Assembly: GCA_034417895.1 (NCBI GenBank)
Contig: DAOULT010000051.1
Location: 4,996 to 68,995 of the forward strand
Reading direction: 5' to 3'
Origin: Anaerolineae bacterium
Lineage (GTDB): Bacteria > Chloroflexota > Anaerolineae > CAZYHC01
DNA: 64,000 bases
Shown here: in pieces, positions 23,041 to 62,550 of the stretch
How the letters are laid out: each line of letters begins with the position of its first letter
How positions within the stretch are numbered: position 1 is the first letter of the stretch
Notes under the pieces: generated by a model
Database searches by the model: none
What the model was told of the DNA's origin: nothing
Seen by the model: only the letters and a program-made list of their open reading frames with translations
Translations under genes and position numbers: made by a program

Positions 23041-23153
23041 CGTCTATAAACCTCAGCCTGGGACTGAGGATCCCAGGCTAAGAGCCAAAGTGCGCTCCAG
23101 CGCACTGCCTTCTAAGTATGGTGGAGCATGAGGCTTTGATCCTGATGCTGTGC

Positions 23154-23411: not shown

Positions 23412-23451
23412 CTATTCTGCACTCTCCTTTTCTGGATTTCTCATTGAGCTT

Positions 23452-24387: not shown

Positions 24388-24548
24388 TCTTGACCTCGCA
24401 TCAGGGTTTCTAATAAACTTAATCCTGATTTATTATACCTCTCCCTGTCTTTCCCGTCAAGTTTGAGGATCCCAGGCGTCCCAGATTTTTGGTAGGCGCC
24501 CGCAGAAACCAGGTTTTTGCTAAAAAAACGTAGAAATGTTTATGGTCC

Positions 24549-24577
24549 TTGACAGGTTGTTCCTTTTCCTGTATAGT
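24549..24577 (+). promoter_or_regulatory. Sigma70-like promoter TTGACA-17-TATAGT upstream of the BNR gene.
   Basis: TTGACA at 24549..24554. 17-nt spacer. TATAGT at 24572..24577. Confidence 0.5.
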
Positions 24578-24647
24578 GGACTCACGGGGTTTTTGTATGG
24601 AAAAAGAAGCATGACGCAGAGCCGCTGATCTGATATTTGGAGGATAG

Positions 24648-26467: not shown

Positions 26468-26510
26468 AAGTGCATATCTCCCATTCTCAACTCCCCACTC
26501 CTTATTCCCT

Positions 26511-30994: not shown

Positions 30995-31092
30995 AAGCAA
31001 ATCCTTGTTGGGACTTTTCACCACAAAGGACACCAAGAACACCAGGAATAAAGGCTTTGTGTCCTTCGTGCTCTTTGTGGTTATATCTGTGT
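30995..31092. repeat. Palindromic ~90-bp repeat element (CCACAAAGGACACC...CTTTGTGTCCTTCGTGCTCTTTGTGG...ATCTGTGTTGGCT) at the 5' end of the ATPase gene. It is homologous to an in-frame copy at 61783..61860.
   Basis: Reverse-complement alignment of 31000..31090 with 61783..61860 gives long identical blocks: gagcacgaaggacacaaag and tcctttgtggtgaaaag. Confidence 0.7.
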
Positions 31093-31095
31093 TGG

Positions 31096-32418: not shown

Positions 32419-32480
32419 AGTAACATCCTTGTTGACACTCTCTTGTCATCATTACACTGTGTGTAGTGACGTAGCTTTGG

Positions 32481-38875: not shown

Positions 38876-38949
38876 TGGGCGAAACAGGACTTGAACCTGT
38901 GACCTCTTCCTTGTAAGGGAAGCGCTCTATCCATCTGAGCTATTCGCCC
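38876..38949 (-). tRNA. tRNA-Val (anticodon UAC).
   Basis: Reverse-strand cloverleaf: GGGCGAA / TA / GCTC AGATGGAT AGAGC / G / CTTCC CTTACAA GGAAG / AGGTC / ACAGG TTCAAGT CCTGT / TTCGCCC A. Acceptor and anticodon stems pair perfectly. Anticodon TAC. No encoded CCA. Confidence 0.85.
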
Positions 38950-41546: not shown

Positions 41547-41706
41547 GGCTATCTCCTTCCTTTTCCCTGATATAAATCATTCCAGACAAGTATTATTAGT
41601 ATACCATAGATCTGAAATTTGTCAATATTCTGGTATAGAAGATCAAGTCGCGGATTGCCACTGATAAATAATTGTGAATGACAAGATTTTTATGAAGAAT
41701 CAGTTA

Positions 41707-41735
41707 TTGACAAAAGTATTTTTATGTGGTATAAT
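41707..41735 (+). promoter_or_regulatory. Consensus sigma70 promoter TTGACA-17-TATAAT in an AT-rich islet. It drives the small ORF at 41823.
   Basis: TTGACA at 41707..41712. 17-nt spacer. TATAAT at 41730..41735. AGGAGG RBS 7 nt before the GTG start. Confidence 0.55.
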
Positions 41736-41822
41736 TCCAATTAAAGTCTGAGTAAAATGAATTCAACCATGATCAAACGATAAATCTACTTCTAAAAAGA
41801 ATTTTTTCCAGGAGGTAGGCGC

Positions 41823-42152
41823 GTGGCATACGTAGTTGAGTTTTGGAGATCCAAATCTGGCTGGCACCAATTGTCTAGAGAGGAGAGAGAAGTCATGGTT
41901 GCGAAGTGGGACTCTCTCCTTTTATCCCTGCCTACCGCAGACGGAGCAGAGCCAACCCTTAAATGGTGCTGCTTCAACCATTGCGCAACGCCTTTCGACC
42001 TCCTTGTCCTTAGCGCACGCGAAGAATACGATCTGGCCGAACCTGGGGCTGATGTCCTCCAATTTAACTGGTCTCGATATTTTGAGAAAGTGGCCTTCAC
42101 CATCGGCAATCTCACCGCTGAAGAATACGCCCGAAAGCTCCATCCCTCGTAG
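41823..42152 (+). CDS. Hypothetical small cytoplasmic protein (109 aa, GTG start) in a low-GC islet.
   Basis: Strong promoter plus RBS. Non-repetitive protein-like sequence MAYVVEFWRSKSGWHQLSREEREVMVAKWDSLL... No family recognised. Confidence 0.5.
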   Translation: MAYVVEFWRSKSGWHQLSREEREVMVAKWDSLLLSLPTADGAEPTLKWCCFNHCATPFDLLVLSAREEYDLAEPGADVLQFNWSRYFEKVAFTIGNLTAEEYARKLHPS

Positions 42153-42416
42153 ACGTACAACAAGTTGAGAACAATTTAGAAATAAATTTCCAGACAGTCA
42201 GCCGGCGACCAGACGGACACGCTTTGTCAAGTCCGGGTGATGCCCGTTGTAAATGACGGGCAAGGAGAGCGTCCCGATCTGTTTAATTGGGTGCATTTAG
42301 AACATATTTTCTGAAATTTTTTACCAAACCTTAACCTGATCTTTACCTAATAATAACCTTTGTGTGGTATGATATTAGTGTAGACAATTGAACTCTCCCT
42401 TGCCTCCCTTTAAGCA

Positions 42417-42465
42417 GGCCGTCTCCCTATCGATCGTGGGGGACGGCTTGTTTTATCAGGGCTGT
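42417..42465 (+). terminator. Rho-independent terminator (stem gccgtctccc/gggggacggc + TTGTTTTAT) on the plus strand. It is preceded ~60 nt upstream by an extended -10-like TGTGGTATGAT, giving a candidate ~70-nt sRNA.
   Basis: Hairpin and T-tract read directly. Promoter-like tgtgtggtatgat at ~42362..42375. Confidence 0.4.
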
Positions 42466-42514
42466 ATTGGTTTCTGGAAGCGTCTGAGCTTTGTTGAGGT
42501 GGCTGGCGTCTTGA

Positions 42515-48288: not shown

Positions 48289-48316
48289 TGGCGTCGTTCG
48301 TCTTGTCCGTTGCGCG

Positions 48317-50188
48317 CTATTGTGGCTCAAGCGTGACTTCTCCCAAAAGGATCTGGTCGTTGCCCAATCTTTCGCCCGTATGCGGCGAATACAGCCCCAC
48401 CGCCAGCCGGTAACGGCCTGGCGCAAGCTCTTCCCCGAAGGGCAAAAAGTGGCGGTCGGGGATGATTTCGCCCGGCCTCCAGGCGGTGGTGGGCAAAAGC
48501 CCGTGCAGAGGTGGGCCATCGGCCTGCGCCCGCACCTGGGGCGCGTCGTCGAGCAGGTGGACGAAAACGGTGTAATCAGCGTCCATTTCGGCCCTGGCCT
48601 GCCAGTAAAGCGTAAGTTCCAAAAGGCCGGATTCCTGCTCCAAATCGTAGCCCAAAAGCCGCGCCACTCCCCCCAGGTCGGCCCTCAGAGGGTGTTGAAT
48701 CTCGTCCGCCGAGGGGCGGAGGGCGTAGAAGATGCGGCGCTGGTCGTCGTAGACGCGCTGAATCAGGTAGTTTTCTTCCGCCCAGGCCAGGTAATCCGGC
48801 AACAGGAGCAGAAAGCGCCCACTCCAGGAAATGACCACCGGGGGGCGATATTCTTCCGTCTGGGCCAGAAGCTCCTCGACGGTCAGATACCCGCTCTTGA
48901 TTAGCACGATGGAAGTGTCGGCCAGGGAAGGCGGCGTATGCCGGCCGGCGCCAAAGACCAACATCTGGTCGTCGCTGATGATCCAATCGTGGGCGGTGGT
49001 GATCTTTTGCAGCCAGGCGACCGCGTCTTGCTCCCGGCCACCCTGCGGCGCGGCAGAGGCTTCGAGGTTGGCTTGTATCGTGGCCGGCAGGCTCCACAGG
49101 TAAAACGCCAGAGCGCCCAGCCCCAACCAGGCCAGTGGTGTTTTGCGCCGGGCGAGGTCGGTCAGGTGGCTCGCCATCTGGCCGAACGCTCCTCCGGCCA
49201 GGATAGCCAGCGGCGGCAAAAATACGGTCAGTTGATGGTCACGCAGGGGCGTATGTACCATCATGGTCGTAACCGCCAGTAGAAGCCAGACCGCAGCCCA
49301 CCAGATTGGCCGCGATTTTCTTAACCCCAGGGCCAGCCCGCCGTAAAGGGCCAGGATCACCAGCCCCCGGTGGGTCAGAAAATACTCGGCGATGCATCGC
49401 CCGTTTTGGAGAGGATTCAGAGGATAGGCTTCTCTGACCTGCCAGCGGAAGGCTACCACCTGCTCGTACATGGCCCGGCTGTCGAGGCTCAGAAGGCAGA
49501 GCAGCAAGGGCAGAGCCAGACCCAGCCCGAAAACGAGCAGATCCAGCGCTGTCTTCTGCCCTCTCCTCTCCTCCGAAAAGCGATGCCAGATGACGATCAG
49601 GGTCACCAGGAACACGGCGAAAGGGGAAAGCACTTTGATCAGCAGGCCAGCCGCCAAGCTCAGCCCTGATAGCGCCAGCCAGCTTCTCTGGCCCCGCCGA
49701 CAGTAGTAAAAAGCAAGGAGAATGGAAAATGCCCCCAACCCTACAGCGGGCACGTCGCCCAGGCAGGCCCTTGAGTAGAGAAAGAAGTCCGGGGTGATAG
49801 AAAGCAGGATCACGGCGGTGATGGCAGCCACACGCCCTGCTATCCTGCGGGCAATAAGCCCCACGGCCAGAAGGCCGGACATCGAATAGAGGACGATGAT
49901 CGTCCGCGCCGCCGCCGTCGTCGTGCCCAAAACCCTGAAAGCCAGGGCAATGGAAGCGATGAAGAGCGGGGCAGACAAAGAGAAAACGTCGGCGTATAGA
50001 CGCTGCCCGGAGTTCATCAGCCGGGCCAGCATTATGTGTGTTCCCTCATCGTTTTCCCAGCCAAAGCCCTCCAGGCCATGTAGCCGCACGACCAGAGACA
50101 AAGCCAGGATGCCGAGCAAAGCGACCCGGTAGATCAACTCGGCCCGCTCCATGCTTGTGGCCTCAGCGTCATTCCTTCCAGCGGCCAT
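48317..50188 (-). CDS. GT-C fold membrane glycosyltransferase (ArnT/GT83-GT39-like) with one C-terminal repeat domain (cluster gene c, paralog of 50189..52084).
   Basis: MAAGRNDAEATSMERAELIYRVALLGILALSLVVRLHGLEGFGWENDEGTHIMLARLMNSG... polytopic. C-terminal IQHPLRADLGGVARLLGYDLEQESGLLELTLYWQARAEMDADYTVFVHLLD...PGRYRLAVGLYSPHTGERL. Confidence 0.75.
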   Translation of the reverse strand: MAAGRNDAEATSMERAELIYRVALLGILALSLVVRLHGLEGFGWENDEGTHIMLARLMNSGQRLYADVFSLSAPLFIASIALAFRVLGTTTAAARTIIVLYSMSGLLAVGLIARRIAGRVAAITAVILLSITPDFFLYSRACLGDVPAVGLGAFSILLAFYYCRRGQRSWLALSGLSLAAGLLIKVLSPFAVFLVTLIVIWHRFSEERRGQKTALDLLVFGLGLALPLLLCLLSLDSRAMYEQVVAFRWQVREAYPLNPLQNGRCIAEYFLTHRGLVILALYGGLALGLRKSRPIWWAAVWLLLAVTTMMVHTPLRDHQLTVFLPPLAILAGGAFGQMASHLTDLARRKTPLAWLGLGALAFYLWSLPATIQANLEASAAPQGGREQDAVAWLQKITTAHDWIISDDQMLVFGAGRHTPPSLADTSIVLIKSGYLTVEELLAQTEEYRPPVVISWSGRFLLLLPDYLAWAEENYLIQRVYDDQRRIFYALRPSADEIQHPLRADLGGVARLLGYDLEQESGLLELTLYWQARAEMDADYTVFVHLLDDAPQVRAQADGPPLHGLLPTTAWRPGEIIPDRHFLPFGEELAPGRYRLAVGLYSPHTGERLGNDQILLGEVTLEPQ

Positions 50189-52084
50189 TCAATACCCTTC
50201 TCCCAGTGCGATTTCGCATAGTGATATACTATCGCCCTCAGCCCCATCAAGAACGGGCAGCCTTTCCATAGTCGAGAGCGAATACAGACCAACCGCCAAC
50301 CGATAACGGCCCGGCGGCAGTTCCGGCAGCAAATGCGGGTCGGGGACGATTTCGCCTGCCGGCCAGGCGCTGGTGGGCAAAAATCCCTGCCAGGGCTGGC
50401 TGTCCGCCTGTTCCCGGAGATTGCCGCTTTCGTCCAGCAGGTGCACGAAAACGGTGTAATCTTCCTGCATCTCGGTCTGGGCCTGCCAGTAAAGCGTCAG
50501 CCTGTGCTTATCTTCCAATTTATAGCCCCGCAGCCTGACCAGGTTCCCTAAATTGGCTTCCCGGCGGTGCTCGATCTCTTCGGCGGCGGCTTTGCGGGCG
50601 TAGTAAATGCGGTGCTGGTCGTCGTAGAACTGCCGCCCCAGGTAGTTTTCTTCCACCCAGGCCACGTAATCGGGCAGCCAGGCGAAACGCTCCCGCCAGG
50701 CCACGACCAGCGGGCAATCGTAGGCGGCAGTCAGCTCGATCAGGCGCTCGTCCGTCTGAAAGCCGGAGCGGATCGCCATGACCGACACGTCCCCGAAAGG
50801 CGGCGGAACGAGCCGCCCGGCCCGGAAAAGCAGCATCAGGTCGTCGCTGGCTACGAAATCCCCGGCCTCGGTCGTCTGTTGGATGAACTCCACGGCGGCC
50901 AGCTCCCGGCCTCCCGGCGAAGCGGCCAGGAGAGCGTTGTTTTCGGCGACGTGGCCCGGCACCTGGGCCAGATAGACCAGGCAGGCCCCCAGCCCGACGG
51001 CCAGAAAAGCCATCTCTTTCGGCCCTGCTATGAAACCCAAAAACCAGGCGTCCCTGGAAACTCCCAGTAGATGAGCGACTGCGACCCCGGCCAGGATAGC
51101 CAGCGGCGGAAGCAGGGCCACTAGGTGATGATACCACAGCGGGGTGTGAATCATCGCCGTCGCTAAAGCCAGGGCCAGCCAGGCCAAAACCCACCGCTCT
51201 CGCCGCTTGAGGGCTGTGACCAGCCCCCCGTAAGCAGCCAGCACGATCAGCCCGGCGTTTCTGGCGGCGAATTCGGCCACCCGCTGCCAGTTTTGGGCCA
51301 GGTCGAGCGGGTAGGCCAGGCGGGCGTTTTGTCTGATGAGCACCACCTGCTCGTACATCGCTCCGGTATCGTAGAAAAACAGGCAAAGCAATACGGGCAA
51401 AACCAGGCATAGCCCCAGCAAAATCAAAGCTATCGCAACTCTACGCCACCTGTCAAGATCGAGTCGCGCCCGGATGACAAACCAGACGGTAAGCAGGGCG
51501 ACGAAAGGGGATAACATTTTCATTAGAAAGCTGGCCGCGGTTATCAGTCCGGCCAGAACCAGCCACACCAGGCGGCCTGAATCCCGGTAACGTAAAGCCA
51601 ATAAAACGGCAAGCGCGGCCAAAGCGAGAGAAGGCACGTCTCCGGTGCACGTCCTGGAGTACTGGAAGAAAAGCGGGGCGAAGGAAAGCACGCACGTTCC
51701 GACCAGCCCGGCCAGGTCGCCCCAGGCGCGGCGGGCGAGCAGACTCACCACAAGCAGCAAAAGCACCGCCAGCCCCAAGATCATCGCTCTGGCCGCCACC
51801 ACGTATAAGCCCAGTACCTTGAGGACCGCGGCGATGGAAACGATGAAAAGGGGCGGCGTCGTGACCCGCACCTGGCTGTACAACCGATAGCCGACACTCA
51901 CCAAAGCGCCCCACGTCAGGTACGCGCCCTCGTCGTAGCCCTGGGCGAAGCTATCCAGGTTATTCAGCCGCCACAACAGGGAGAGGGCCAGCACGCCCGC
52001 CACAATCGGCCAGTAATAGCCCGGCCATCCTGGCCGATCCCGCCGGGAAAAGGTCTGTTCGCCATTCATTTTCCCCTCTCCCAT
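50189..52084 (-). CDS. GT-C fold membrane glycosyltransferase with one C-terminal repeat domain (cluster gene d).
   Basis: Paralog of gene c (RLNNLDSFAQGYDEGAYLTWGALVSVGYRLYSQV..., C-terminal RLRGYKLEDKHRLTLYWQAQTEMQEDYTVFVHLLDESGNLREQADSQPWQGFLPTSAWPAGEIVPD...PGRYRLAVGLYS). Its stop abuts the start of gene c. Confidence 0.75.
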   Translation of the reverse strand: MGEGKMNGEQTFSRRDRPGWPGYYWPIVAGVLALSLLWRLNNLDSFAQGYDEGAYLTWGALVSVGYRLYSQVRVTTPPLFIVSIAAVLKVLGLYVVAARAMILGLAVLLLLVVSLLARRAWGDLAGLVGTCVLSFAPLFFQYSRTCTGDVPSLALAALAVLLALRYRDSGRLVWLVLAGLITAASFLMKMLSPFVALLTVWFVIRARLDLDRWRRVAIALILLGLCLVLPVLLCLFFYDTGAMYEQVVLIRQNARLAYPLDLAQNWQRVAEFAARNAGLIVLAAYGGLVTALKRRERWVLAWLALALATAMIHTPLWYHHLVALLPPLAILAGVAVAHLLGVSRDAWFLGFIAGPKEMAFLAVGLGACLVYLAQVPGHVAENNALLAASPGGRELAAVEFIQQTTEAGDFVASDDLMLLFRAGRLVPPPFGDVSVMAIRSGFQTDERLIELTAAYDCPLVVAWRERFAWLPDYVAWVEENYLGRQFYDDQHRIYYARKAAAEEIEHRREANLGNLVRLRGYKLEDKHRLTLYWQAQTEMQEDYTVFVHLLDESGNLREQADSQPWQGFLPTSAWPAGEIVPDPHLLPELPPGRYRLAVGLYSLSTMERLPVLDGAEGDSISLCEIALGEGY

Positions 52085-52087
52085 TCC

Positions 52088-54928
52088 CTATTCCCCACTC
52101 CCTATTTCCACCTCTTCCAGTATAATCCGGTCATCTTGCGCCCCGCCCAAAACAGGCAGCCGTTCCCCGCTGAGCACTTCGTACAGGCCGACGGCCAGGG
52201 TATAGCGGCCCGCCGCAGGCGCCGCCACCTCCCGCGCCTCAATGACCACCTCTCCGACCGACCAGCCAGTGGTGGGCAGCGGCGGCGGGCCATCCTGCTG
52301 AGCCTGAATCTGGCCTTTTTCGTCCAGGAGGTGCACGAAGACGGTGTAAGCAGTTTCCATTTCAGAGAGAGCCTGCCAGTAAAGCGTCAACTGCACGGTC
52401 CTTGCCGGTTGTACCTCCAGGTCGTAGCCCAATAGCGCGACCAGGTTCCCCAGGTTGACTTTCAGCGGGTGTTGTGTGGGCGGCGCTTCAAAAAGCCTCT
52501 CCCGGCTCTGCACCTCCACCCGGCCCAAAGCGACAGGCCCCGATCTTTCCCCCGTCCGACCGTCCGCCAAAGCAATCATCAGGCGATACGCCCCGCCGGG
52601 CACACCGCCAGACACCAGGAAGTCCCGCACGTCGCGCCCGATTTCCCCTTTCTGGCCGGGGAGGGTGGGGCGTTCCTGCCGTTCGCCCCACGACCGGCCT
52701 TCTTCGTCTTCCAGCCACAGGGCGAGCAGGTAGTCCCCTTGCACCTGGCGCCTGGCCCGCCAGTAGAGGGTCAGGGGCAAACGCTGGCCAGAGGAGGCCG
52801 CACCGCCCTCGAAGTCGTAGCCTAGCAGTTCGATTTCGGCGTTCAGGCTGTTTTCCAACTGGTGTTGCATAGCCAGTTCTGCGAGCGTGGGTGGGGAGGA
52901 TGGCTTTGTGACGGTCACCATTCCCGGCGTAAGCCCTCCGCCGAAGCCGGGGCGCGCTCCCCCGTGAAGCTCGGAAACGTTCAACACCCGCCCGCTACCG
53001 TTCGCTGTTTGGAGCGAGTAAAGCCCTACTTCCAGCCGGTACTCTCCCGGCGGAGTGCCGGGCGGAATGAGCGGGGCGTACTCGTCGGTTATAAACATGC
53101 CCGCCCGCCAGTGCAGGGTGCGCCACAGCCCCAGCACCGGCCAGCGGTCCTGTGCGGCCCAGATGCGCCCCTGCTCGTCCACCAGCCGCAGGTAGACGTG
53201 GTAATCTTCCTCCAGGTCTGCCAGGCAGCGCCAATGTAGGGCCAGGCGCAATTTCTGGCCGGAGGCTGCTGGCTCCAGGTCGTAGCCGGAAAGCTCCACC
53301 CGTCCGTCGAAAACGCCGCCCGCGTGATAGCCAGCGACCGGCCCCGACCCAAAGCCGTAAACCGGCCCCCGGTAAAGCCAGGCGTAATCGATGCCCTTGG
53401 CCCGCACCACGTATTCGGGCCGCCGCAGGCCGAAATATTCGAGCAACTCCGCGCTCGGATAGCCGCGCTGAAGCTGGTTGACATAAAAAACGGTGTAGTC
53501 GGCTTTTAGAGCCGCGCCCTCTTGGGCCAGGCCGACGACCTGGCCTCGGAAAAAAGCGGCCAACTGGCGGCTGAACCAGGAAGCGGCCACCAGTCCACCG
53601 CCTGTCTCGTTCGCTGTTTCGTTCAGGTAGCGGCCCGCCTGGTCCAACCCCTCGCCCCAGCCGATCAATAGAGCCTGCCGCGCCAGATGCGTCCCTCCCA
53701 TAGCCGGATTGTAATAGCTCAGGTAATAGGGATAATGCGGCAGGCTGAGGCCGACCTGCACCAGCACGCAGCCAAAAGCGAACCCAACAGCGAACAAATG
53801 CGAGAGGTTCAGAACTGGCCGAAACTTCGAGCTTAGAGCCTCAAGCGATCTCCAGAGTCCCCACCCGGCCAGCAGGTGCAGCGTGGGGAAAACGGCCAGC
53901 AGGTAGCGGTCAAGCTTCTTGGCGCCGAGCGAAATGAAAATGGCGAAGAGCAGGACGTAAATCGCCAAAACGCCCAGGCTCCATTTTCTTTCCCTTTTTT
54001 CCCGTCGCCAGGCGAGCAAAGCGCCCGCCAGCCCCAACAGTACAGGCGGCGTGGCCCGAAATAGAAAAACGAGGGGATAAAACCCCAGGCCGGGGTCGTC
54101 CACGATGCGGCCCAGGAAATACTGCCGATGGCCGGCTTCGGCCAGGTCGAGCGAACCGCCCAAAGTCAGCCACAAAGTACCCAGCGGCCTGACCCACATG
54201 GCGGGCCAGACCAATCCCACCGCCAGAGCCATCGCCCCGCCAAAAATCGCCAGGCTCTTCACTGTCCGCTTCCGCCCTGCGATCAACATCCCGCAGCCAA
54301 AAGGGAGCAGAAACAAAGACGGAGACTTGCTCAAAAAGGCCAGTCCTGCCGTGACCCCCGACAGGGTGAGCCAGAACACCCCTTTTGCCCCATTATCAGC
54401 GCCATTTCGCAAATAGACGGCCAGGCTCAAAACGGAAACGGTGGCAAAGGTGGCCGCCAGAGCGTCTTGATGCAGGATGCGCGAGTGGGCCAGGTAAAAA
54501 GGGTCGAAAGCGGCCAGCAAGGCCCCCAGCAGCGCTGCCTTTTCCCCGACCAGCAGCCGACCCCACTGGTAGAGCAAAGCCACTCCCAGGGCAGTCACCA
54601 AGGCGATAGTCAGCCGCATGGCAGCCAGCGTTTCCGGGTTCACGGCTGGCGCAGAGTCCCGGCCCGTCAGCAGCAGCCCCAAAGCGCCGCTCCACATGGT
54701 GGTCACGCCGGGGTGAAAGGTCTGGGCGGTATCGGCCCAGCGTCCTTCTTGCAAAGCGGCCAGGAATTGGCTGGCCCATTGCACCCAGTCCGACTCGTCC
54801 CCGGCCATAAAAGCCGAAAGTCCCGCCAGACGCGGTGCCAGGGCTGCCAGGAAAACTAAACACGAATAAACGAATGGGCGAAGGCTGCTACCATCAACTG
54901 GCTTACCTTCATTTACGCCTTCACTCAA
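52088..54928 (-). CDS. GT-C fold membrane glycosyltransferase (GT39-like, GDESDWVQW) with three C-terminal repeat domains (cluster gene e).
   Basis: Paralog of gene b. The track start at 54928 is a TTG overlapping the upstream stop by 8 nt, and there is no in-frame ATG for 41 codons, so the start codon is uncertain. Repeat units LSGYDLEPAASGQKLRLALHW..., IELLGYDFEGGAASSGQRLPLTLYWRA..., VALLGYDLEVQPARTVQLTLYWQALSEMETAYTVFVHLLDEKGQIQAQQDGPP. Confidence 0.7.
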   Translation of the reverse strand: MSEGVNEGKPVDGSSLRPFVYSCLVFLAALAPRLAGLSAFMAGDESDWVQWASQFLAALQEGRWADTAQTFHPGVTTMWSGALGLLLTGRDSAPAVNPETLAAMRLTIALVTALGVALLYQWGRLLVGEKAALLGALLAAFDPFYLAHSRILHQDALAATFATVSVLSLAVYLRNGADNGAKGVFWLTLSGVTAGLAFLSKSPSLFLLPFGCGMLIAGRKRTVKSLAIFGGAMALAVGLVWPAMWVRPLGTLWLTLGGSLDLAEAGHRQYFLGRIVDDPGLGFYPLVFLFRATPPVLLGLAGALLAWRREKRERKWSLGVLAIYVLLFAIFISLGAKKLDRYLLAVFPTLHLLAGWGLWRSLEALSSKFRPVLNLSHLFAVGFAFGCVLVQVGLSLPHYPYYLSYYNPAMGGTHLARQALLIGWGEGLDQAGRYLNETANETGGGLVAASWFSRQLAAFFRGQVVGLAQEGAALKADYTVFYVNQLQRGYPSAELLEYFGLRRPEYVVRAKGIDYAWLYRGPVYGFGSGPVAGYHAGGVFDGRVELSGYDLEPAASGQKLRLALHWRCLADLEEDYHVYLRLVDEQGRIWAAQDRWPVLGLWRTLHWRAGMFITDEYAPLIPPGTPPGEYRLEVGLYSLQTANGSGRVLNVSELHGGARPGFGGGLTPGMVTVTKPSSPPTLAELAMQHQLENSLNAEIELLGYDFEGGAASSGQRLPLTLYWRARRQVQGDYLLALWLEDEEGRSWGERQERPTLPGQKGEIGRDVRDFLVSGGVPGGAYRLMIALADGRTGERSGPVALGRVEVQSRERLFEAPPTQHPLKVNLGNLVALLGYDLEVQPARTVQLTLYWQALSEMETAYTVFVHLLDEKGQIQAQQDGPPPLPTTGWSVGEVVIEAREVAAPAAGRYTLAVGLYEVLSGERLPVLGGAQDDRIILEEVEIGSGE

Positions 54929-57392
54929 TGATTGTCACCTCTTGCAAAAAGACGCTATTGCCCTGCGGATTGCCGGCCTGGTCAAAAACTTCCAGGCGTT
55001 GGCCGCTTTCGGGTTGGTAAAGCCCGGCCAGCAGGGGATGGCGGCCAGGCGGGGTATCGGCCCCGACCGGCACCCGATAACGCTCGATCACAGGGTGGCC
55101 GGGCCGCCAGTCCGACGTCCGGTAAAAGCCGCACAGGGGCAGCCCATCCCGCTGGCCCCAAATACGCTCGTTGTTGCGCTCGTCTTCCAGGTGGATGAAA
55201 ACGCTGTAATCCTTTTTCATGGTGGTCAGCGCTTCCCAGTAAAGGGTCAGAACCAGGCTCCCCCCTGGCTGCGCCTTCTCGCTCTCCAGATCGTAGCCCC
55301 GCAGGCGGATACGGTGGCCCAGGTCGGCGGTCAGAGGATGAGCAGGGGTCGGCCGCCGGGCGACGGCCTCCGGCGTCGTGCCCCGATCAAAAGCGGATTC
55401 CGCCTCCCGCGCCTCGCAGGTTATCGAGGAGGCTTCGGCCGGGGGATGGCGGTAAAGGCGCAGTTCTGGCTCGCCGTTCACCGTGACCACGCCCATCGGC
55501 GCGTAGCCTTCAGGCAGGGAGACTCCGAGCCGCTCGTCTCGCACCCGGTCGGCCATGATGTAGTACTCGGCGTCAGGGCAGTAGGAGCGTATGGCGCCCC
55601 GCGCATACCAGGCCGTGATCTCGCCCTCCTCGTTGCTGTTGTAATCGCCCCGCAAGACCCCCTCGGCGTAAAGCTGCCCGATGGCCTTCCACCCGGCCCG
55701 ATAAGGGAAGCCAAAGAAAGCGGCGGGAGGCAGGTGGCGGTAAGCTGTCCAGTAGAGAGAGCTTCTGTGGGCCGGATAAGTCCAGATGTATTGCGGTTCG
55801 CACTGGATAAAGGCCAGGTAGATGTATCCGGCAAAGACCAGGTACAAAAGGATAAACACGCCCGTAGTAACGATTTCAATCGTTGTCTTCGCGGTTGGAC
55901 GACTAAAGTCGTCACTACAAACCCGCAGGCGCTGCCACATATCATCCAGCCCCAGTCCGGCCATGAGCATCCAGGCCGGGAAGAAGGTGTAAACGTGAGT
56001 CAGGGGATGCGCCACCAGAAAGGTGTAGAGCAGGAAAGGGACCCCAAACCAGATCAGGCAGGTCATCCATTCCACCGAAAAGAAGGACGCCCGGCCAGCC
56101 CTCAGACGCTTAACCACCGCCCAGGCCAGGGCCAGAATAATGAAAACAAAATAGTAAGTCGAGTTGTAGACCGTGCTCTGCAAAAAAGTAAAGCCCAGGT
56201 TGTTGTGGAGAAGCCCGCTCCCCAGGCGCCGGCCTACCAGATAGCGGTAAGTGGTGGTCGCCTGGGGATCGAGCCAGAAGGGGAGATAGAAAAGGCCGCT
56301 CAAGACCAGGAATATTGCCAGCGCTAAGACGTAGCCCCGCAGCTCAACGCCTTCCCCCTTCCACTTCTTTCGGCTTTTCCAGGCCAGGTAAAGGATGGCG
56401 GGCAGCACCAGAGCGGCATCGTAATGGGCCAGAAGGCCGCAGGCGGCAAACAGCGCCCCAGGAACCTGATAGCGCCCGGCCCCTTCAGCGTAGAAACGGT
56501 AGTAACAGTAAAGGGCCAGGCCCATCATCAAAAAAACCAGGCTTTGATATTGCACGATGCGGGCGAAGCCCACGAAATAGCCGTTGATGGCGGCCAGGGA
56601 TGCGGCCAGCCACCCGACACGCAGGCTGAACATGCGCCCTCCCAGGAGATAGACCACTCCTACCGCCAGCAGACCGGCCAGGGCGAAAGGAAAACGCGCT
56701 CCCGCCTCGTCGATCCGGCCCGTGAGAAGCCAGCAGGCGGCAGGGAGCAGAATCTCGGCCGGGCCTTTGCCGTGGGCGAAAAGGGCGTCGTCCCAGCCCT
56801 CGATGACCTGGGCGGCTCTTAACATAACCAGGGCTTCGTCGCCCTGAAACTCGGAATAGCCCAGGGAGGCGAAACGAAAGAACGAAGCCAAAACTATAAC
56901 CACCAGGAGCACGCTGACACGGATTTTGGTCACGGATATCACGGATTCCACCATCGATCGTGCCTTGAGCCGTGAAATCCGTGACCCTAATCTGTGTTGG
57001 CTCTTTCCCATCCACAGCGCCAGGGCCAGAGGAGCAAGGATAAGCGCATCGCAGACGATAAGCAGTGAAACGGAGGTCAGGCGACCGGGCAGATAATGTA
57101 GAAGCAGCGCGCCCACCAGCGAGAGGGCGTAACTGGCTCCACAGCCGAGCACAATTCTCTCTATCAGGTCGGTCTCGGCGGCCAGGGGGATAAGCTCCAG
57201 CAGAGCGAAGCCGGGCAGGATGCAGAGCAACAGGACGGCGCTCGCGTAACGCACGGGCCAAAAATCAACGGCCAGCAGAACCGCGTTAGCCCCGACCAGA
57301 GCCAGGACGAGCCAGAAAAACCCTCCCGGCCTCCAACCCCGACCATCGCCTCCCGACCGTATATTATTTCTTCCCATTCCAATTTCTGCCAT
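54921..57392 (-). CDS. GT-C fold membrane glycosyltransferase (GT39-like, FQGDEALVMLRAAQ motif) with one C-terminal repeat domain (cluster gene f, paralog of 59798..62179).
   Basis: ATG at 57392. C-terminal AHPLTADLGHRIRLRGYDLESEKAQPGGSLVLTLYWEALTTMKKDYSVFIHLEDERNNERIWGQRDGLPLCGFYRTSDWRPGHP...PGRHPLLAGLYQPESGQRL. Contains an in-frame AATCCGTG palindromic element at 56925..57002. Confidence 0.75.
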   Translation of the reverse strand: MAEIGMGRNNIRSGGDGRGWRPGGFFWLVLALVGANAVLLAVDFWPVRYASAVLLLCILPGFALLELIPLAAETDLIERIVLGCGASYALSLVGALLLHYLPGRLTSVSLLIVCDALILAPLALALWMGKSQHRLGSRISRLKARSMVESVISVTKIRVSVLLVVIVLASFFRFASLGYSEFQGDEALVMLRAAQVIEGWDDALFAHGKGPAEILLPAACWLLTGRIDEAGARFPFALAGLLAVGVVYLLGGRMFSLRVGWLAASLAAINGYFVGFARIVQYQSLVFLMMGLALYCYYRFYAEGAGRYQVPGALFAACGLLAHYDAALVLPAILYLAWKSRKKWKGEGVELRGYVLALAIFLVLSGLFYLPFWLDPQATTTYRYLVGRRLGSGLLHNNLGFTFLQSTVYNSTYYFVFIILALAWAVVKRLRAGRASFFSVEWMTCLIWFGVPFLLYTFLVAHPLTHVYTFFPAWMLMAGLGLDDMWQRLRVCSDDFSRPTAKTTIEIVTTGVFILLYLVFAGYIYLAFIQCEPQYIWTYPAHRSSLYWTAYRHLPPAAFFGFPYRAGWKAIGQLYAEGVLRGDYNSNEEGEITAWYARGAIRSYCPDAEYYIMADRVRDERLGVSLPEGYAPMGVVTVNGEPELRLYRHPPAEASSITCEAREAESAFDRGTTPEAVARRPTPAHPLTADLGHRIRLRGYDLESEKAQPGGSLVLTLYWEALTTMKKDYSVFIHLEDERNNERIWGQRDGLPLCGFYRTSDWRPGHPVIERYRVPVGADTPPGRHPLLAGLYQPESGQRLEVFDQAGNPQGNSVFLQEVTIIE
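56925..57002. repeat. Palindromic short repeat element of the AATCYGTG family (ggtcacggatatcacggattcc...gccgtgaaatccgtgaccctaatctgtgttggct), in-frame inside GT-C gene f.
   Basis: Inverted arms read directly. Related copies are at 28900..28965 and 29195..29240 (inside GT-C gene 28530..30149). The element shares the 3' tail ATCTGTGTTGGCT with the element at 31076..31092. Confidence 0.6.
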
Positions 57393-57407
57393 TGGAATGT
57401 GATTTTA

Positions 57408-59801
57408 TCACTTTTCCCCGAATCTTTCAACCCTCACCGGGCCAAGCAGAATGTGGTCGCTTCCATCCACAGTCAGCCGTTGGCCGCTTTGGGCTTCGTA
57501 TAGCCCTACCTCGACGGCATATTCCCCGGCTGGAGCATCGGGCGGGGCGGCGATCTCGTACACGTCCTGGATGAACTCGCCCTCTACCCACAGACTGGTG
57601 GGCGCCGCGCCTCGGACGGGCGGGTTGTCTTTTCCTCCAAAAACTCGCCCCTCCTCATCGAGCAGGTGGGTGAAAACGGTGTAATCCTGGTCCATCCCGG
57701 CCAGGGCCTGCCAGTAGAGGGTCAGGCGCAGGGCGTCGCCGGCCCTAACTGTGGCCGCCAGATCGTAACCCACCAGGCGCACCACTCCGCCCAGGTCAGC
57801 CCCTACCTGGTGCTGCACTTTTGGCCGGGCGAAAATCCGCCGGGCCTCGATACCCCTGGGCATCCCGCACCGTTTGCCGAATTCCATCAGCCGGAGCGCT
57901 GTGCCGTTGGCCGGCAGCCTGGGAGCCAGGGCCGCATCCCGCACCTGGGGCTTCAGGCGGCGGCCCACTTCCCAGGGGTCGGTCCCATCCACCACGCCCA
58001 GGGCAATGCCGTAGCGCGCCCGGTCGCGGGTGTACCACGACAGGGTATCAGCCACCACGCGCACCGTTTCCCCCGGCTGCCAATGACTGGTCGGGTGCCA
58101 GACCGTCACCGGCTGAGGCTGGTCGGTGCTGCCTGTGACGTTCCCTTCCTCGTCCAGAAGGTAGAGGGCGATCAGATAATCCCGCTCCACCTCCTGCAAG
58201 GCCGTCCAGTACAGGTTGAAGTTGACTTCTTCTGCGCGGTTATAGAGAACGTCGAAGCCCAGAAAACGCAACTCGGAGCCGAAATCGACCGTCATGGGAT
58301 ACTGGATGGCGGGGTTGTCCACCGTGACGAAGCTATAGAAATCGCGAGATAAAGGTTGATGCGGCGCGCCCCGGCGGAGCAAGACGTAACCGTCCTGGCT
58401 GGCTATCACCCCGAAATCATCTGCTGTCTCGATCCAGTCCTGGAGAGAGCCGTGCACGTTGTCCTTGTTGGGCAGGGTGGATACGTCCAGGAACACGTAT
58501 TCTATATCGTCGCGGTGGACGACCTGGTAAACCCGTCGGCGCTGGCTGACGTGGGGGTTGAGGTTGATCTGGGCGCTCAGGACGGCATCCGGCGGGATCA
58601 TTTCGATGAACTTCTGGGCCAGGCGGTGGTGGGCGGTGACGGGCGGCCAGCGGAAGGGGGCGGCCAGCGGTGAGAAACCACGACAGTAGTGATAGCCCAC
58701 ACTGACCACCAGCACGAGGGCCGACAGGAGATGGACCAACCTCCGAGAATCGAGTTTCAGCCAGCGGCTCAAGGTTTCGCTCAGGGCTTCAAGGCCATAG
58801 ACGCCAGAGACCAGGACAAAGGGCACGATGGGGGCCGCATAGTGAAACTCCTCCAGGCGGTGCATGAAGGCGTCCTCGCTGAGCAGGTTGACGGCCAGGG
58901 AGGGCAGGGCCAATACCAGGGTCAGAGGGCTTAACAGGGACAGGAAGGCCAGGGGCAAAAGCAAGCCTTTCAGATAGTTTAAGGCCCCGGCTTTCGACAA
59001 TTGATCGACCACGACCCCCGGCTGGCCGAAGATGGTTTTCACCATCTGCCAGGGGGTGTCGCCCAGGTAGGCGTAGCGCCTGACGTGGATGTTAGCTCCC
59101 ATCGGGCTGAAGGGCGGGGTGATGACGAAAACGGCCAGAAAGAACCACAACCCCGCCCCCAGGACGGTCAGCCATCCGGCTCGCCGCTCCCGCTGCACGA
59201 CCAGAATGTACAGCCCCATGGCCGCCACCAGCAGACACATATCCTCCTTGCAGCTCATGGTCAAGATGGCGAACAGGGCGAAAGGACGATAAGCCCTCTT
59301 TTGCAGGAAATAGAAAGCGGCCAAGAGACAGGGAACGGCCAGGGTTACAGCGTGGAAGTCGAACAGATTGGCCGCTTCCAAGGCGGGGAAAAGCAGATAG
59401 GCGGCGGCGAAGGCCAGCGCGGCAAAATCGCTCTTCAGCCTGTCCCTGGTCAGCAGAAAGGCAGGCCAGGCTCCCAGAGCCAAGACCACCGTTTGCAGCA
59501 CCAGCAGAGTCAGCGGGCTGGAATAGAGTAGATAAGTCAACGAGACGACCAACAGGATAGGCTCAAAGTGCAGCGCCAGGCGGCTCTCCAGGCCGTCCAT
59601 CTCGATGCCGTCCATGTTGGTGAAGCAGAAGAGGCAGCCGTGCAGGGTGTTATAAACCGCCTGATCGACGTTGCCCAGGTCGTAGCCGTGAGTTTCGAAC
59701 ACGGCGTGGCGGTGGATGGACAGGGCGCTGAAGGTCACGGCGTAGAGGACGACCAGCAGCCAGAGCGCAGCCACAAAAAAGCGAGAGGGATCGCTTTTCA
59801 T
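57408..59801 (-). CDS. DUF2079-like polytopic membrane protein (GT-C-like putative glycosyltransferase) with two C-terminal repeat domains (cluster gene g).
   Basis: N-terminus ...SIHRHAVFETHGYDLGNVDQAVYNTLHG... resembles DUF2079 (from recollection, not certain). C-terminal LRFLGFDVLYNRAEEVNFNLYWTALQEVERDYLIALYLLDEEG... and VRLVGYDLAATVRAGDALRLTLYWQALAGMDQDYTVFTHLLDEEGRVFGGKDNPP...AGEYAVEVGLYEAQSGQRL. ATGA overlap with gene h. Confidence 0.65.
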   Translation of the reverse strand: MKSDPSRFFVAALWLLVVLYAVTFSALSIHRHAVFETHGYDLGNVDQAVYNTLHGCLFCFTNMDGIEMDGLESRLALHFEPILLVVSLTYLLYSSPLTLLVLQTVVLALGAWPAFLLTRDRLKSDFAALAFAAAYLLFPALEAANLFDFHAVTLAVPCLLAAFYFLQKRAYRPFALFAILTMSCKEDMCLLVAAMGLYILVVQRERRAGWLTVLGAGLWFFLAVFVITPPFSPMGANIHVRRYAYLGDTPWQMVKTIFGQPGVVVDQLSKAGALNYLKGLLLPLAFLSLLSPLTLVLALPSLAVNLLSEDAFMHRLEEFHYAAPIVPFVLVSGVYGLEALSETLSRWLKLDSRRLVHLLSALVLVVSVGYHYCRGFSPLAAPFRWPPVTAHHRLAQKFIEMIPPDAVLSAQINLNPHVSQRRRVYQVVHRDDIEYVFLDVSTLPNKDNVHGSLQDWIETADDFGVIASQDGYVLLRRGAPHQPLSRDFYSFVTVDNPAIQYPMTVDFGSELRFLGFDVLYNRAEEVNFNLYWTALQEVERDYLIALYLLDEEGNVTGSTDQPQPVTVWHPTSHWQPGETVRVVADTLSWYTRDRARYGIALGVVDGTDPWEVGRRLKPQVRDAALAPRLPANGTALRLMEFGKRCGMPRGIEARRIFARPKVQHQVGADLGGVVRLVGYDLAATVRAGDALRLTLYWQALAGMDQDYTVFTHLLDEEGRVFGGKDNPPVRGAAPTSLWVEGEFIQDVYEIAAPPDAPAGEYAVEVGLYEAQSGQRLTVDGSDHILLGPVRVERFGEK

Positions 59802-62179
59802 TTAACCATCACCTCTTGCAACAGCACGCTGGTCCCCTGTGGGTTCCCGGCCAGGTCGAGGACGTCGAGGCGCTGTCCGCTGACAGGCTCATAGAGGCCG
59901 ACGGTCAACGGATATCGGCCCGGCGGCGTTTCGGGGGAGATGGGCAAGCGGCGGCGGTCAACGATTACCGTGCCAGGCCGCCAGGCGTTGGTTGGGTAGG
60001 TGCGGCAGACGGGCACGCCGTCGCTCTGGCCCCAGACGCGGTCTGATTCCAGGTGGCTGAAGACGTAGTAGTTAGTGCTCAGGCGTTTTTCGACCTGCCA
60101 GTAAAGCGCCAGCCGCAGGCTACCAGCCGGGTGGGCGCGGCTGGCGTCCAGGTCGTAGCCCAAAAACTGCACCTGGGCAGAAGGGCCTTTCAGCGTGATG
60201 TTCAGAGGGTGGTCAATGGCTGGCTTCCCAACCATGTTTCGGGATGTGATCCGGCGGTCGAAGTCGGCTTCGTAATCCCCGGCGGCGAGGGGGCCAAAAT
60301 CGGCCTGGGCCTGGGGATGTCGGTAGATGCGCAGCCTGGGTTTGCCCCCGACCAGCACGCTGCCAGCCGACACGTACTCTTCCGGCACGTCGCCGATGGG
60401 TTGTTCGTCTTGCACGTTTTCGGCTATCAGGTAGTAGTCGGCGGCCTCTTCGGGGCAGGCGCGGGGCGCGTGGCGCGTATACCAGAAGGTGATGACGTCC
60501 TCCTCGTTGCTCAGGTAATCGCCTCGTAGCGCCCCGGTGCGATAAAGTTCGCCCACCGCCTTCCACCCGGCGCGGTAAGGAAAGCCGAAATAACCTTCCG
60601 GGGGCAGCTCGTCGTAAACTGTCCAGTAGAAGTCATTTTTGTGGGCCGGGTAGGTGCGTTTGTATTCCGGGTCGTGCCAGACGAAGACCATAAAGATGTA
60701 CCAGGCAAAGACCAGGTAGAGGGCGACGAAAACCGCCCGCCCGGCCATGGCCCATCTAATCCTCCCCAACAGCCTGTCAATCTCATCCAGGGCCAGCCCG
60801 GCCAGCAGCGTCCAGCCCGGGAAAAGGGTGTAAACGTGGGTCAGCGGTTTGGCGACGAAAAAAAGGTAAAACGCGGCGGGTACAGCCAGCCAGATGAAGC
60901 ACGCTGTCCGACCCACATCAAGCCTGGAAAGAGCAGCCAGCACCGCCCAACCCAAAAGCAGAGGCAGAAAGACCAGGTAGTAAGTCGAATTGTAAACCGT
61001 GCTCAGCACGAAGAAAGAAGGCAGGTTGTTCACAGGCAGGCTGTGGCCTAGCCTTTTGCCCTCCAGGTAGCCATAGGTGGACGCAAACTGCTGGTCGGCC
61101 ACGAAGGGCGGGTAAAAAAGCAGCGGCACGACCACTGCCAGAAGCAGGCAAAGGGCCAGCCATTTTTTGCCCCCGGCCCACTGCCCGGCCAGCAGGTAAA
61201 GCGCCGCCGGAAGAATCAGCACGGTATCATAGTGGGTCAGCAGGCCGAAGCCCAAAAACAGTCCGCTCAATAAAGCGTGACCCCCGGCCCGGTTGGCGCG
61301 GAAACGGTAAGCGCACCACAAAGCCAGCCCGCTCATAGCCAGCACCAGGCTTTGATACTGCACCACCCGCCCAAAGCCGACAAAGTAGCCATTGACCGCC
61401 AGAAGCAGTCCGGCCAGAAATCCTACCCGCTGGTTGAACATGCTGCGGCCTAGCAGGTAGAGGGCCGCCACACCCAACAGGGCGGCCAGGGCGAAAGGCA
61501 TACGCGCCCCCCATTCCGTGATCCGCCCTGTGAGCAGCCAGGTGGAGGCCGGGATCAGGATCTCTGCCGGGCCTTTAGCGTGCGTGAACAGGACGTGATC
61601 CTGTCCCTCGAGGGCCTGGGCCGCCTTGAACATAACCACCGCTTCGTCGCCTTGGAATTCGGAATAACCCAGGAAAACCAGGCGCGGCACAGCAGCAACC
61701 ACCAGCAAGACCACCAGCGACCAGTTACAATCGGAGGCCAGGCGGCTGGCTCCCTTCATAACCGCGAAGAGCACGAAGGACACAAAGTCTTTATCTTCAC
61801 ACTCCTGGTGTTCTTTGTGCTCTTTGTGTCCTTTGTGGTGAAAAGCTCTGATCAGGAGCAAGGGCGCAAGGGTCAGCAGGTCGCAGGCCAGGAGGATGGA
61901 GGCCACGCTCATGGGGCCAGGCAGGTAGTGCACAATCAGCGTGGTCAGCGACGAAAGAACGTAACTGAGGCCGCCGCCGAGCGTCAGACGCTCCACCCCA
62001 CTGACATCCCCGGCCAGCTCCATGAGGGCCAGGCCGGGCAGGAAGAAGAGCAGCAGAACGGCGCTCAGATAGCGTAAGACCGCCAGATCGGTGAGAATTA
62101 TGAAAACATTAGCCGCCGCCAGGGACCCAATAAGCCACAGATGCTTGCGTTTCCAAAGAAGATACGCAGGAGGAGCCAT
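59798..62179 (-). CDS. GT-C fold membrane glycosyltransferase (GT39-like, FQGDEAVVMFKAAQ) with one C-terminal repeat domain (cluster gene h).
   Basis: Start trimmed to ATG 62179 (the track start at 62182 is TTG). Paralog of gene f. C-terminal IDHPLNITLKGPSAQVQFLGYDLDASRAHPAGSLRLALYWQVEKRLSTNYYVFSHLESDRVWGQSDGVPVCRTYPTNAWRPG...PGRYPLTVGLYEPVSGQRL. Carries an in-frame palindromic element at 61783..61860 encoding HKGHKEHKEHQECEDKDFVSFVLFAVMK. Confidence 0.75.
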   Translation of the reverse strand: MAPPAYLLWKRKHLWLIGSLAAANVFIILTDLAVLRYLSAVLLLFFLPGLALMELAGDVSGVERLTLGGGLSYVLSSLTTLIVHYLPGPMSVASILLACDLLTLAPLLLIRAFHHKGHKEHKEHQECEDKDFVSFVLFAVMKGASRLASDCNWSLVVLLVVAAVPRLVFLGYSEFQGDEAVVMFKAAQALEGQDHVLFTHAKGPAEILIPASTWLLTGRITEWGARMPFALAALLGVAALYLLGRSMFNQRVGFLAGLLLAVNGYFVGFGRVVQYQSLVLAMSGLALWCAYRFRANRAGGHALLSGLFLGFGLLTHYDTVLILPAALYLLAGQWAGGKKWLALCLLLAVVVPLLFYPPFVADQQFASTYGYLEGKRLGHSLPVNNLPSFFVLSTVYNSTYYLVFLPLLLGWAVLAALSRLDVGRTACFIWLAVPAAFYLFFVAKPLTHVYTLFPGWTLLAGLALDEIDRLLGRIRWAMAGRAVFVALYLVFAWYIFMVFVWHDPEYKRTYPAHKNDFYWTVYDELPPEGYFGFPYRAGWKAVGELYRTGALRGDYLSNEEDVITFWYTRHAPRACPEEAADYYLIAENVQDEQPIGDVPEEYVSAGSVLVGGKPRLRIYRHPQAQADFGPLAAGDYEADFDRRITSRNMVGKPAIDHPLNITLKGPSAQVQFLGYDLDASRAHPAGSLRLALYWQVEKRLSTNYYVFSHLESDRVWGQSDGVPVCRTYPTNAWRPGTVIVDRRRLPISPETPPGRYPLTVGLYEPVSGQRLDVLDLAGNPQGTSVLLQEVMVK
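61783..61860. repeat. 78-bp (26-codon) palindromic repeat element inserted in-frame in a loop of GT-C gene h. It is homologous to the element at 30995..31092.
   Basis: gagcacgaaggacacaaagtctttatcttcacactcctggtgttctttgtgctctttgtgtcctttgtggtgaaaag. Internal inverted repeats cacaaag/ctttgtg. It replaces the loop region that in paralog f holds a different repeat element. Confidence 0.7.
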
Positions 62180-62550
62180 CAATGCTGTCTTTGCTCCGGG
62201 AGTCGGAAGTCCACCACCGAGCCTAGCAGGCTCTCGTAGCCCAGGCCGGTGGTGAAGATCATAGCCAATTGCACGATGGTAGGCTCGGCGTGGTTCAACT
62301 GCACCTGACGATAAACCACGGGCAGCAAAACTATCCCGCTGATAGCGCTGACGATCAACGAACGCGGGGAGAAAAAGCAGCCTCCCCGCTGCAAGGACCT
62401 CAGGTAATTGTTGGCGATGATGCCGACCACCAGCGCCAGATAGATGTACAACTGCCAGTCCGTGGTAAGAGCGTGGGCGGCTGTTGCCGCCTCGGTTCCT
62501 GGGCCTGCCGCCGCCCCGCTCAGATCGAAGTAATTAAGCAGCCAATCCAT
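62179..62550 (-). CDS. Small 4-TM membrane protein heading the GT-C array (possibly GtrA-like / lipid-linked sugar translocation accessory). Function unassigned.
   Basis: ATG at 62550 (MDWLLNYFDL...) with a strong RBS agaagggggg 10 nt upstream. The track start at 62559 is TTG. The stop overlaps the start of gene h by 1 nt (TGATG). Confidence 0.5.
   Translation of the reverse strand: MDWLLNYFDLSGAAAGPGTEAATAAHALTTDWQLYIYLALVVGIIANNYLRSLQRGGCFFSPRSLIVSAISGIVLLPVVYRQVQLNHAEPTIVQLAMIFTTGLGYESLLGSVVDFRLPEQRQH

Follow-up and report, generated by a model that had tools for sequence, protein, structure and literature searches.

A C-terminal beta-sandwich unit carried in one to three copies by GT-C glycosyltransferases of Chloroflexota

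Results

The 64,000-nucleotide stretch of DNA analyzed here (the window) comes from an uncultured Anaerolineae bacterium (GenBank assembly GCA_034417895.1, contig DAOULT010000051.1, forward-strand positions 4,996 to 68,995), and its right-hand third, at 42515-62182, is taken up by eight tightly packed minus-strand genes, which we call a to h. When their open reading frames (ORFs) are translated, all eight products are glycosyltransferases of the GT-C type, and an earlier note on this DNA, made from the letters alone, had claimed that each of them ends in one to three copies of a conserved repeat. The present analysis concerns this repeat, hereafter the unit, and the enzymes that carry it.

Pfam searches matched PMT_2 in a-f and h and DUF2079 in g (E 1.2e-65); g is thus a DUF2079 protein rather than the PMT_2 paralogue that it had been taken for. 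All eight proteins, the DUF2079 protein included, have the multi-transmembrane (TM) fold of GT-C enzymes, and their first loop after TM1 contains a conserved acidic residue; no significant Pfam match was found in the last 130-450 residues of any of them. Gene h (59798-62182) encodes a PMT_2 protein with one unit, and g (57408..59801) a protein of 797 aa in which the DUF2079 GT-C module is followed by a small alpha/beta domain (about residues 390-477) and two units. The remaining genes are all of the PMT_2 kind: f (54921-57392), with a long N-terminal TM extension and one unit; e (52088-54928), with three units; d (50189-52084) and c (48317-50188), with one unit each; and b (45391..48288) and a (42515..45396), with three units each. 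The start of a is most likely the ATG at 45394-45396 (MSAKTT...), while that of b is uncertain and lies at about 48250-48288 (MGERND at 48288 or slightly later). The raw ORFs of both genes run in-frame upstream over the 3' end of the preceding gene (45397-46570 and 48289-48519, minus strand), and the over-long products (1351 and 1042 aa) begin with nonsense stretches rich in Arg, Gly, and Pro. In gene h, residues ~113-131 (about 61790-61846, minus strand) form a His/Lys/Glu-rich insert, HHKGHKEHKEHQECEDKD, between N-terminal TM helices; it does not occur in the paralogue f and might be a metal-binding or low-complexity loop.

The stop of h and the start of g overlap by 4 nt (59798-59801), f and e overlap by 8 nt (54921-54928), c and d abut (50188/50189), and the start of a overlaps the stop of b (45391-45396). 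Because the genes overlap or abut in this way, the arrangement suggests that a-h form one translationally coupled operon. The membrane modules fall into five classes, with b and e 45% identical, c and d 43%, f and h 48%, and a and g each standing alone; modules of different classes can barely or not at all be aligned with each other by BLAST.

A phmmer search with the last 135 aa of g as the query found 15 units, namely three each in a, b, and e, two in g, and one each in c, d, f, and h. A profile hidden Markov model (HMM) built from these 15 and run against the six-frame translation of all 64 kb recovered the same 15 with domain E-values of 1e-36 to 1e-50, and beyond them nothing rose above noise anywhere in the window. 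The repeat is therefore real, far beyond chance, and not a product of low complexity. The earlier note had counted the copies of every gene exactly, although its total of about 16 was one too many, and its core motif returned in our alignment consensus as LLGYDL...LTLYWQA...DYTVFVHLLD...PTxxWxxGE...PPGxYxLxVGLY...G.RL. All 15 units lie at the C-termini of a-h, as had been described, and each is a discrete domain of ~125-135 aa. The motif (Q/E)HP(L/V)xA(D/N)LGG, which was thought to lie ahead of the unit, turned out to form its first beta-strand (model residues 2-8). In these terms the sequence at 57408-58100, from which the repeat had first been described, holds the stop codon of g, the whole of its second unit, the linker, and the last ~58 residues of its first unit.

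To gain a structural picture of the unit, we modeled the last unit of g (g2) with AlphaFold2, using the 15-unit alignment as input. The result was a nine-strand all-beta sandwich with a predicted local distance difference test score (pLDDT) of 94.8 and a predicted template modeling score (pTM) of 0.87. A model of full-length g, made from an alignment of 86 orthologues, was equally confident (pLDDT 95.1, pTM 0.90) and comprises a helical membrane core (residues 7-374), the alpha/beta domain, and two sandwiches at 501-651 and 664-792, the first of which extends by extra strands to about residue 651. In these models the unit is an independently folding domain with an immunoglobulin-like (Ig-like)/E-set fold: it forms the two-sheet all-beta sandwich of about 100-130 residues expected of such domains and matches known members structurally. 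The Ig-like fold that the earlier note had guessed from the beta-rich composition was thus borne out by both the model and the structure searches. The nearest folds are generic for this group and include the Ig-like domain of glycoside hydrolase family 2 (GH2), the Wzt carbohydrate-binding domain, NPC2 and RhoGDI, and RbmA. Foldseek matched NPC2, the Wzt domain, CARDB, and RhoGDI at E-values of about 2e-5 to 3e-4 and TM-scores of 0.5-0.65; the top matches include NPC2 (1nep, E 1.8e-5, TM-score 0.62), RhoGDI, and Der f 2. The unit can be superposed on solved Wzt carbohydrate-binding domains, which are also beta-sandwiches, while a structural comparison with subdomain II of the EmbC C-terminus revealed no similarity.

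No named family accounts for the unit. We searched Pfam-A 2025 (with the whole proteins, the 15 units, and 89 diverse units), NCBIfam 20.0, and the sequences of the PDB (with two unit profiles and unit a2), and the units had no significant match in any of the three. Isolated g2 matched no family in Pfam or NCBIfam, the units as a whole drew no match in NCBIfam, and the best PDB sequence for the two profiles was RbmA at an insignificant E of 1.6e-3. Among the 89 diverse units there were scattered sub-threshold Pfam matches, to DUF4625 (6), MG2 (6), MalQ_N (5), TcfC (3), RbmA-like_FnIII (3), and Wzt_C (2), and the sole Pfam match of the g orthologues was PF09852. In whole proteins the best score for Wzt_C (PF14524) was 19.4 bits (protein a, E 1.1e-3), below the gathering score of 30.4 bits, and among isolated units two of the 15 gave a signal, with a best E of 9e-5. 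Our literature search found no paper on the unit family, nor on DUF2079 or Chloroflexi family 39 glycosyltransferases. The unit is thus an undescribed and unnamed family of known fold, without a Pfam or NCBIfam model; as the earlier note had expected, no characterized family was hit.

The Wzt_C signal came only from second-position units, a2 (42968..43321, HMM E 1.6e-39) and b2 (whole-protein E-values 1e-3 and 2e-2), which hints that this positional class may be the one closest to the Wzt glycan-binding domain. The window's only ABC ATPase (30146-31042) carries no unit, and all 15 units follow GT-C membrane modules.

Comparison of the 15 units with each other revealed two kinds. The units that stand last in the eight genes group together at about 40-60% identity; we call this group the terminal type, which is always the final unit and is common to otherwise unrelated GT-C classes. 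It comprises g2 (57426..57815, HMM E 2.2e-50; residues 664-792 of the full-length model), a3 (42521..42913, E 1.8e-49; 55% identical to g2), b3 (45406..45792, E 2.4e-49), c1 (48329..48697, E 8.1e-48), d1 (50207..50572, E 2.2e-42; 60% identical to c1), e3 (52103..52474, E 2.8e-43), f1 (54930..55343, E 4e-49; 52% identical to h1), and h1 (59801..60211, E 5.7e-46), all on the minus strand, as are the other units. The internal units, by contrast, are specific to class and position and pair by paralogue: b1 (46297..46656, E 5e-47) is 50% identical to its positional orthologue e1 (52979..53329, E 1.9e-41), and b2 (45829..46209, E 3.1e-39) is 45% identical to e2 (52511..52867, E 3.1e-38). The class-specific g1 (57930..58304, E 1.5e-36) corresponds to the model strands at 501-651. 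The most divergent unit is a1 (43355..43714, E 7.7e-36), which lacks the QHP first-strand motif and is 19-30% identical to the others.

The same division appears in other genomes. Against the terminal units of non-DUF2079 enzymes from other genomes, g2 has a median identity of 48.5%, compared with 45% against those of its own orthologues, whereas g1 shares 51% identity with the first units of orthologous proteins and ~30% with all other units. The terminal unit is thus constrained in a way that all GT-C classes share. All 120 of the 120 g orthologues listed have exactly two units, and within the window the paralogue pairs share their copy number (three in b and e, one in c and d, one in f and h). 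Units inside one protein are 19-38% identical. Since copy number is constant, internal units are positional orthologues, and identity within a protein is low, the tandem copies are ancient and were inherited with the GT module, their number being fixed within each GT-C class. We rejected recent tandem duplication or gene conversion as the origin of the copies because identity within a protein is low and because the terminal units of different genes here resemble each other no more closely than they resemble terminal units from other genomes. The earlier note had called the domain modular, expanded or lost independently of the GT module; it is modular to the extent of being fused to at least four Pfam GT-C families, but its copies have not come and gone independently of the modules that carry them.

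We then compared conservation over 141 terminal and 112 internal units, in the numbering of g2. Both kinds have a common core (G16, Y17, L33, W35, Y45, L51, P72, W76, G79, P95, and G97). A further set, F48, H50, Q61, D63, P66, T73, D84, Y86, G104, Y106, and R113, is 84-100% conserved in terminal units but only 38-62% in internal ones, with the exception of T73 (79%). The genome scan that supplied units from other species (described below) was seeded with the six most similar terminal units, the 15-unit alignment having had no sufficiently conserved stretch, and this seeding biases the central match of each locus towards the motifs YTVFVHLLD and GxYxLEVGLY. As controls for this bias we used 53 terminal units without the scan motifs and an independently retrieved orthologue alignment. 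The terminal-specific conservation persists, at 85-100%, in the 53 units, and W35, F48, H50, D63, P66, W76, D84, G104, and Y106 are invariant in the 86 g orthologues, which were retrieved by whole-protein homology.

The unit is widespread. A HMMER scan of 1.84 billion cluster representatives (50% identity) found 28,835 at E<=1e-3 and 19,492 at E<=1e-10, the best-scoring of which are 900-1,100 aa long with three or four units at the C-terminus. All named matches are to Chloroflexi or Chloroflexota proteins called "glycosyltransferase family 39 protein", "DUF2079 domain-containing protein", or "hypothetical". The genome scan, which took one genome per species, confirmed at least 582 stretches, and the 77 loci that were kept are all from metagenome-assembled genomes of Chloroflexota (Anaerolineae, Anaerolineales, and Caldilineae), the closest of those listed, at 83% identity, being from an uncultured Anaerolineales genome. 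These loci hold 167 unit-bearing ORFs, of which 80 have three units, 32 have two, and 55 have one (some ORFs are truncated at the ends of the locus), and the genes often stand in runs of two to five neighbors. A tblastn search of a plasmid collection with g2 found no match. The units thus align in many genomes other than this one, and a chance or low-complexity resemblance limited to one genome is ruled out by the E-values, the confident fold, the number of representatives, and the recurrence of the unit in 167 ORFs of 77 loci.

The C-terminal position is also general, with one to three tandem units placed behind the TM core and a small alpha/beta domain. In most of the 167 ORFs the last unit ends within ~25 aa of the stop codon, and in 158 proteins the last unit is followed by a median of 2 aa and by no more than 22 aa. 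The only clear exception is a 1679-aa stop-to-stop ORF at 6450-11486 (plus strand) of locus L023, whose two units end 892 residues before the C-terminus; this could reflect two genes that are fused or unresolved, or else another architecture.

The N-terminal parts of the 150 best representatives, which as top scorers are biased towards multi-copy proteins, fall into about a dozen classes. The host Pfam families are several PMT_2 classes, DUF2079, PTPS_related, and TMEM260-like, with two examples that have no Pfam match, and a member of one further host cluster has been named "Gpi18-like mannosyltransferase" by the Joint Genome Institute (JGI). Every host with a classifiable N-terminus is a GT-C enzyme, and among the hosts examined nothing spoke convincingly for a non-GT-C host or for a unit standing alone. 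Short matches (129-245 aa) that might have been stand-alone units are mostly fragments at contig ends. Two that were checked on longer contigs, one of them at the contig start and the other near GT2/PMT_2 genes and downstream of about 2.4 kb with just two short genes called on the minus strand, give no good support for a free-standing domain. In everything that could be named or classified, the domain is specific to Chloroflexota and to GT-C enzymes.

Related arrays in other Anaerolineae genomes combine a DUF2079 gene with several PMT_2 genes, sometimes together with genes for glycosyltransferase family 2 (GT2) and LPG_synthase_TM proteins. Genes for donor synthesis do occur beside such arrays elsewhere, although none for GT2 polyprenyl-phosphate glycosyltransferases or flippases was seen among the ORFs scanned across 12-42 kb of the window. 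At locus L081 (15049-20775, plus strand), which belongs to a complete Anaerolineales genome of 5.35 Mb, a small PMT_2/PMT_2/DUF2079 array precedes the genes for a VIT/VWA protein and, next to it, a bacterial alpha-2-macroglobulin of 1908 aa, whose macroglobulin (MG) domains have the same general fold as the unit.

Within the window, an 819-aa protein with GAF and tetratricopeptide repeat (TPR) domains, a possible regulator, is encoded directly downstream of the array (39087-41546, minus strand), and the ~970-bp gap between the two (41547-42514) has no convincing ORF. A tRNA-Val gene (anticodon TAC; 38876-38949, minus strand) is the window's only Rfam or ARAGORN match. A ninth PMT_2-type GT-C gene (28530-30149, minus strand; 539 aa) has no C-terminal unit and abuts a MacB-type exporter operon at 30146-34715 on the same strand, which consists of genes for ABC_tran (30146-31042), HlyD (31096-32418), and MacB_PCD/FtsX (32481-34715) proteins. 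Envelope-related genes lie at 21388-27551 and encode a CBM_11-containing protein (21388-23040), a sortase (23452-24387), an acyltransferase (25796-26467), and a LysM protein (26511-27551). Sortases are typical of monoderm (Gram-positive-type) envelopes.

Discussion

The position of the unit relative to the membrane matters for any reading of its function. In solved GT-C enzymes the first loop, with its acidic residue, and the soluble C-terminal domain lie on the outer or lumenal side, and since the C-terminal domains of those enzymes are extracytoplasmic, the units described here are probably so as well, as the earlier note had predicted. Our own count of hydropathy and positive-inside charge, a crude method, does not help this placement: the TM counts of 7-12 are unreliable and the charge bias is inconsistent.

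Beta-rich modules at the end of GT-C enzymes have precedents in mycobacteria. AftD is reportedly a mycobacterial GT-C arabinosyltransferase with carbohydrate-binding modules (CBMs). The likeness to EmbC and AftD lies in a soluble beta-rich module at the C-terminus of a GT-C enzyme that depends on polyprenyl-phosphate sugars, which GT-C topology predicts to be extracytoplasmic in the present case, and in the presence of several paralogous GT-Cs in one envelope-glycan pathway. In EmbC the C-terminal module, a lectin-like CBM, binds the acceptor and is needed for chain extension (PMC3044687). The Wzt domain of O-antigen ABC transporters (PF14524), on the other hand, is a cytoplasmic, single-copy domain on an ABC ATPase, while the units stand on GT-C enzymes and are presumably extracytoplasmic. 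The Ig-like domains of GH2 enzymes, the MG domains of bacterial macroglobulins, and the fibronectin type III (FnIII)-like domains of RbmA have no significant sequence relationship to the unit; they are mostly structural parts of soluble enzymes or matrix proteins, and none of them is C-terminal on a GT-C enzyme.

The mechanism that we consider most likely, with a probability of about 0.5, is that the terminal unit binds a glycan and the internal units add contacts or reach. Because a module with its own near-invariant residues, several of them polar or charged, ends many different GT-C enzymes, the terminal unit would recognize something common to them all. It would be a CBM-like module whose ligand is present in the substrates of every one of these enzymes, the simplest candidate being one and the same envelope polysaccharide or glycoconjugate built or decorated by the array, and it would hold the acceptor chain close to the enzyme as the C-terminal CBM of EmbC does for arabinan. 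The earlier note had likewise proposed that the domain could hold the growing glycan, or else set polymer length, and both roles remain putative. The internal units might then be extra binding sites specific to each class, or rigid spacers that set the reach of the terminal unit from the membrane. In keeping with this reading, the closest structural relatives include the Wzt domain that binds glycan ends, CBMs, and the sugar-binding matrix protein RbmA. Several points weigh against it. Glycan binding by the unit is something that we infer. The fold is generic, and the non-sugar-binders NPC2, RhoGDI, arrestin, ASF1, and macroglobulin domains match it equally well. The Wzt_C signal is below the Pfam threshold in the two of 89 diverse units that gave one, and the cytoplasmic Wzt domain on its ABC ATPase belongs to a different context. 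Finally, the conserved polar and aromatic residues could belong to a buried network, a metal site, or an interdomain interface rather than form one exposed patch.

Other functions for the same domain have to be weighed against glycan binding. A structural module that binds no sugar, either a rigid Ig-like spacer or a protein-protein interaction domain, is a possible but unlikely alternative. In its docking variant, the common terminal unit would join the GT-C paralogues to each other or to an S-layer, sheath, or scaffold protein. Ig-like and FnIII-like folds often serve in this way, a single type of terminal unit on many co-operonic enzymes would suit a common partner, the fixed one to three copies per class resemble a spacer of defined length, and the pTM of the full-length g model suggests a rigid arrangement. 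However, a pure spacer would not be expected to keep the near-invariant polar and charged residues H50, Q61, D63, D84, and R113 specifically in its last unit, and no conserved partner gene was seen beside the arrays in the neighborhoods examined. We regard it as improbable that the terminal unit instead folds back as a lid on the extracytoplasmic face of its own GT-C module and forms part of the acceptor groove, the conserved residues being the interdomain interface. The confidence of the g model throughout does predict a fixed arrangement of domains, and the C-terminal soluble domains of PglB/STT3 and Emb proteins contribute to substrate binding (PMC3044687). Yet membrane modules between which BLAST detects no similarity (a, g, b/e, c/d, and f/h) all precede the same terminal unit, with zero, one, or two internal units in between, and a single interface conserved across such different partners and chain distances is unlikely.

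Least probable of all, and in our estimation very doubtful, is a lipid-binding domain of the ML/NPC2 or RhoGDI kind that would hold the polyprenyl tail of the donor or the released carrier. In its favor, polyprenyl-phosphate sugars are what GT-C enzymes use, Foldseek ranks NPC2, RhoGDI, and Der f 2 highest, and two of the 89 diverse units gave faint matches to the Pfam ML domain (E1_DerP2_DerF2, E 0.16-0.25). These E-values are far below threshold, though, and ML domains are built on conserved disulfides, while the units have a mean of 0.3 cysteines and no conserved cysteine column. The terminal-specific residues are, moreover, largely polar or charged rather than the lining of a hydrophobic cavity, and in proteins with two or three units no part of the chain lies further from the membrane module than the terminal unit.

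Glycan binding by such a domain would change no general principle, as mycobacteria already provide examples of GT-C enzymes with accessory sandwiches that bind sugar. What the unit offers is an entry into the biology of Chloroflexota, which are abundant in sediments, sludge, and hot springs and whose cell envelope chemistry is poorly known. Their genomes contain long GT-C arrays whose annotation goes no further than "family 39 glycosyltransferase", "DUF2079", or "hypothetical", and some 29,000 sequence clusters without a database model are a real annotation gap. A family model would mark these enzymes in metagenomes and would distinguish the terminal unit, which is universal, from the internal ones, which are class-specific. 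The unit is also a small soluble handle (135 aa, confidently modeled) for finding the polymer.

More tentatively, the terminal unit might be a shared "address" domain that docks many catalytically different GT-Cs onto one envelope polymer. If this were true, Chloroflexota as a whole would possess an extracytoplasmic assembly line for glycans, with eight enzymes in this operon and several arrays per genome, in which the number of internal units sets the working distance of each enzyme from the membrane. Its logic would be akin to that of mycobacterial arabinogalactan and lipoarabinomannan (LAM) synthesis, but carried by a domain family of which no member has been described.

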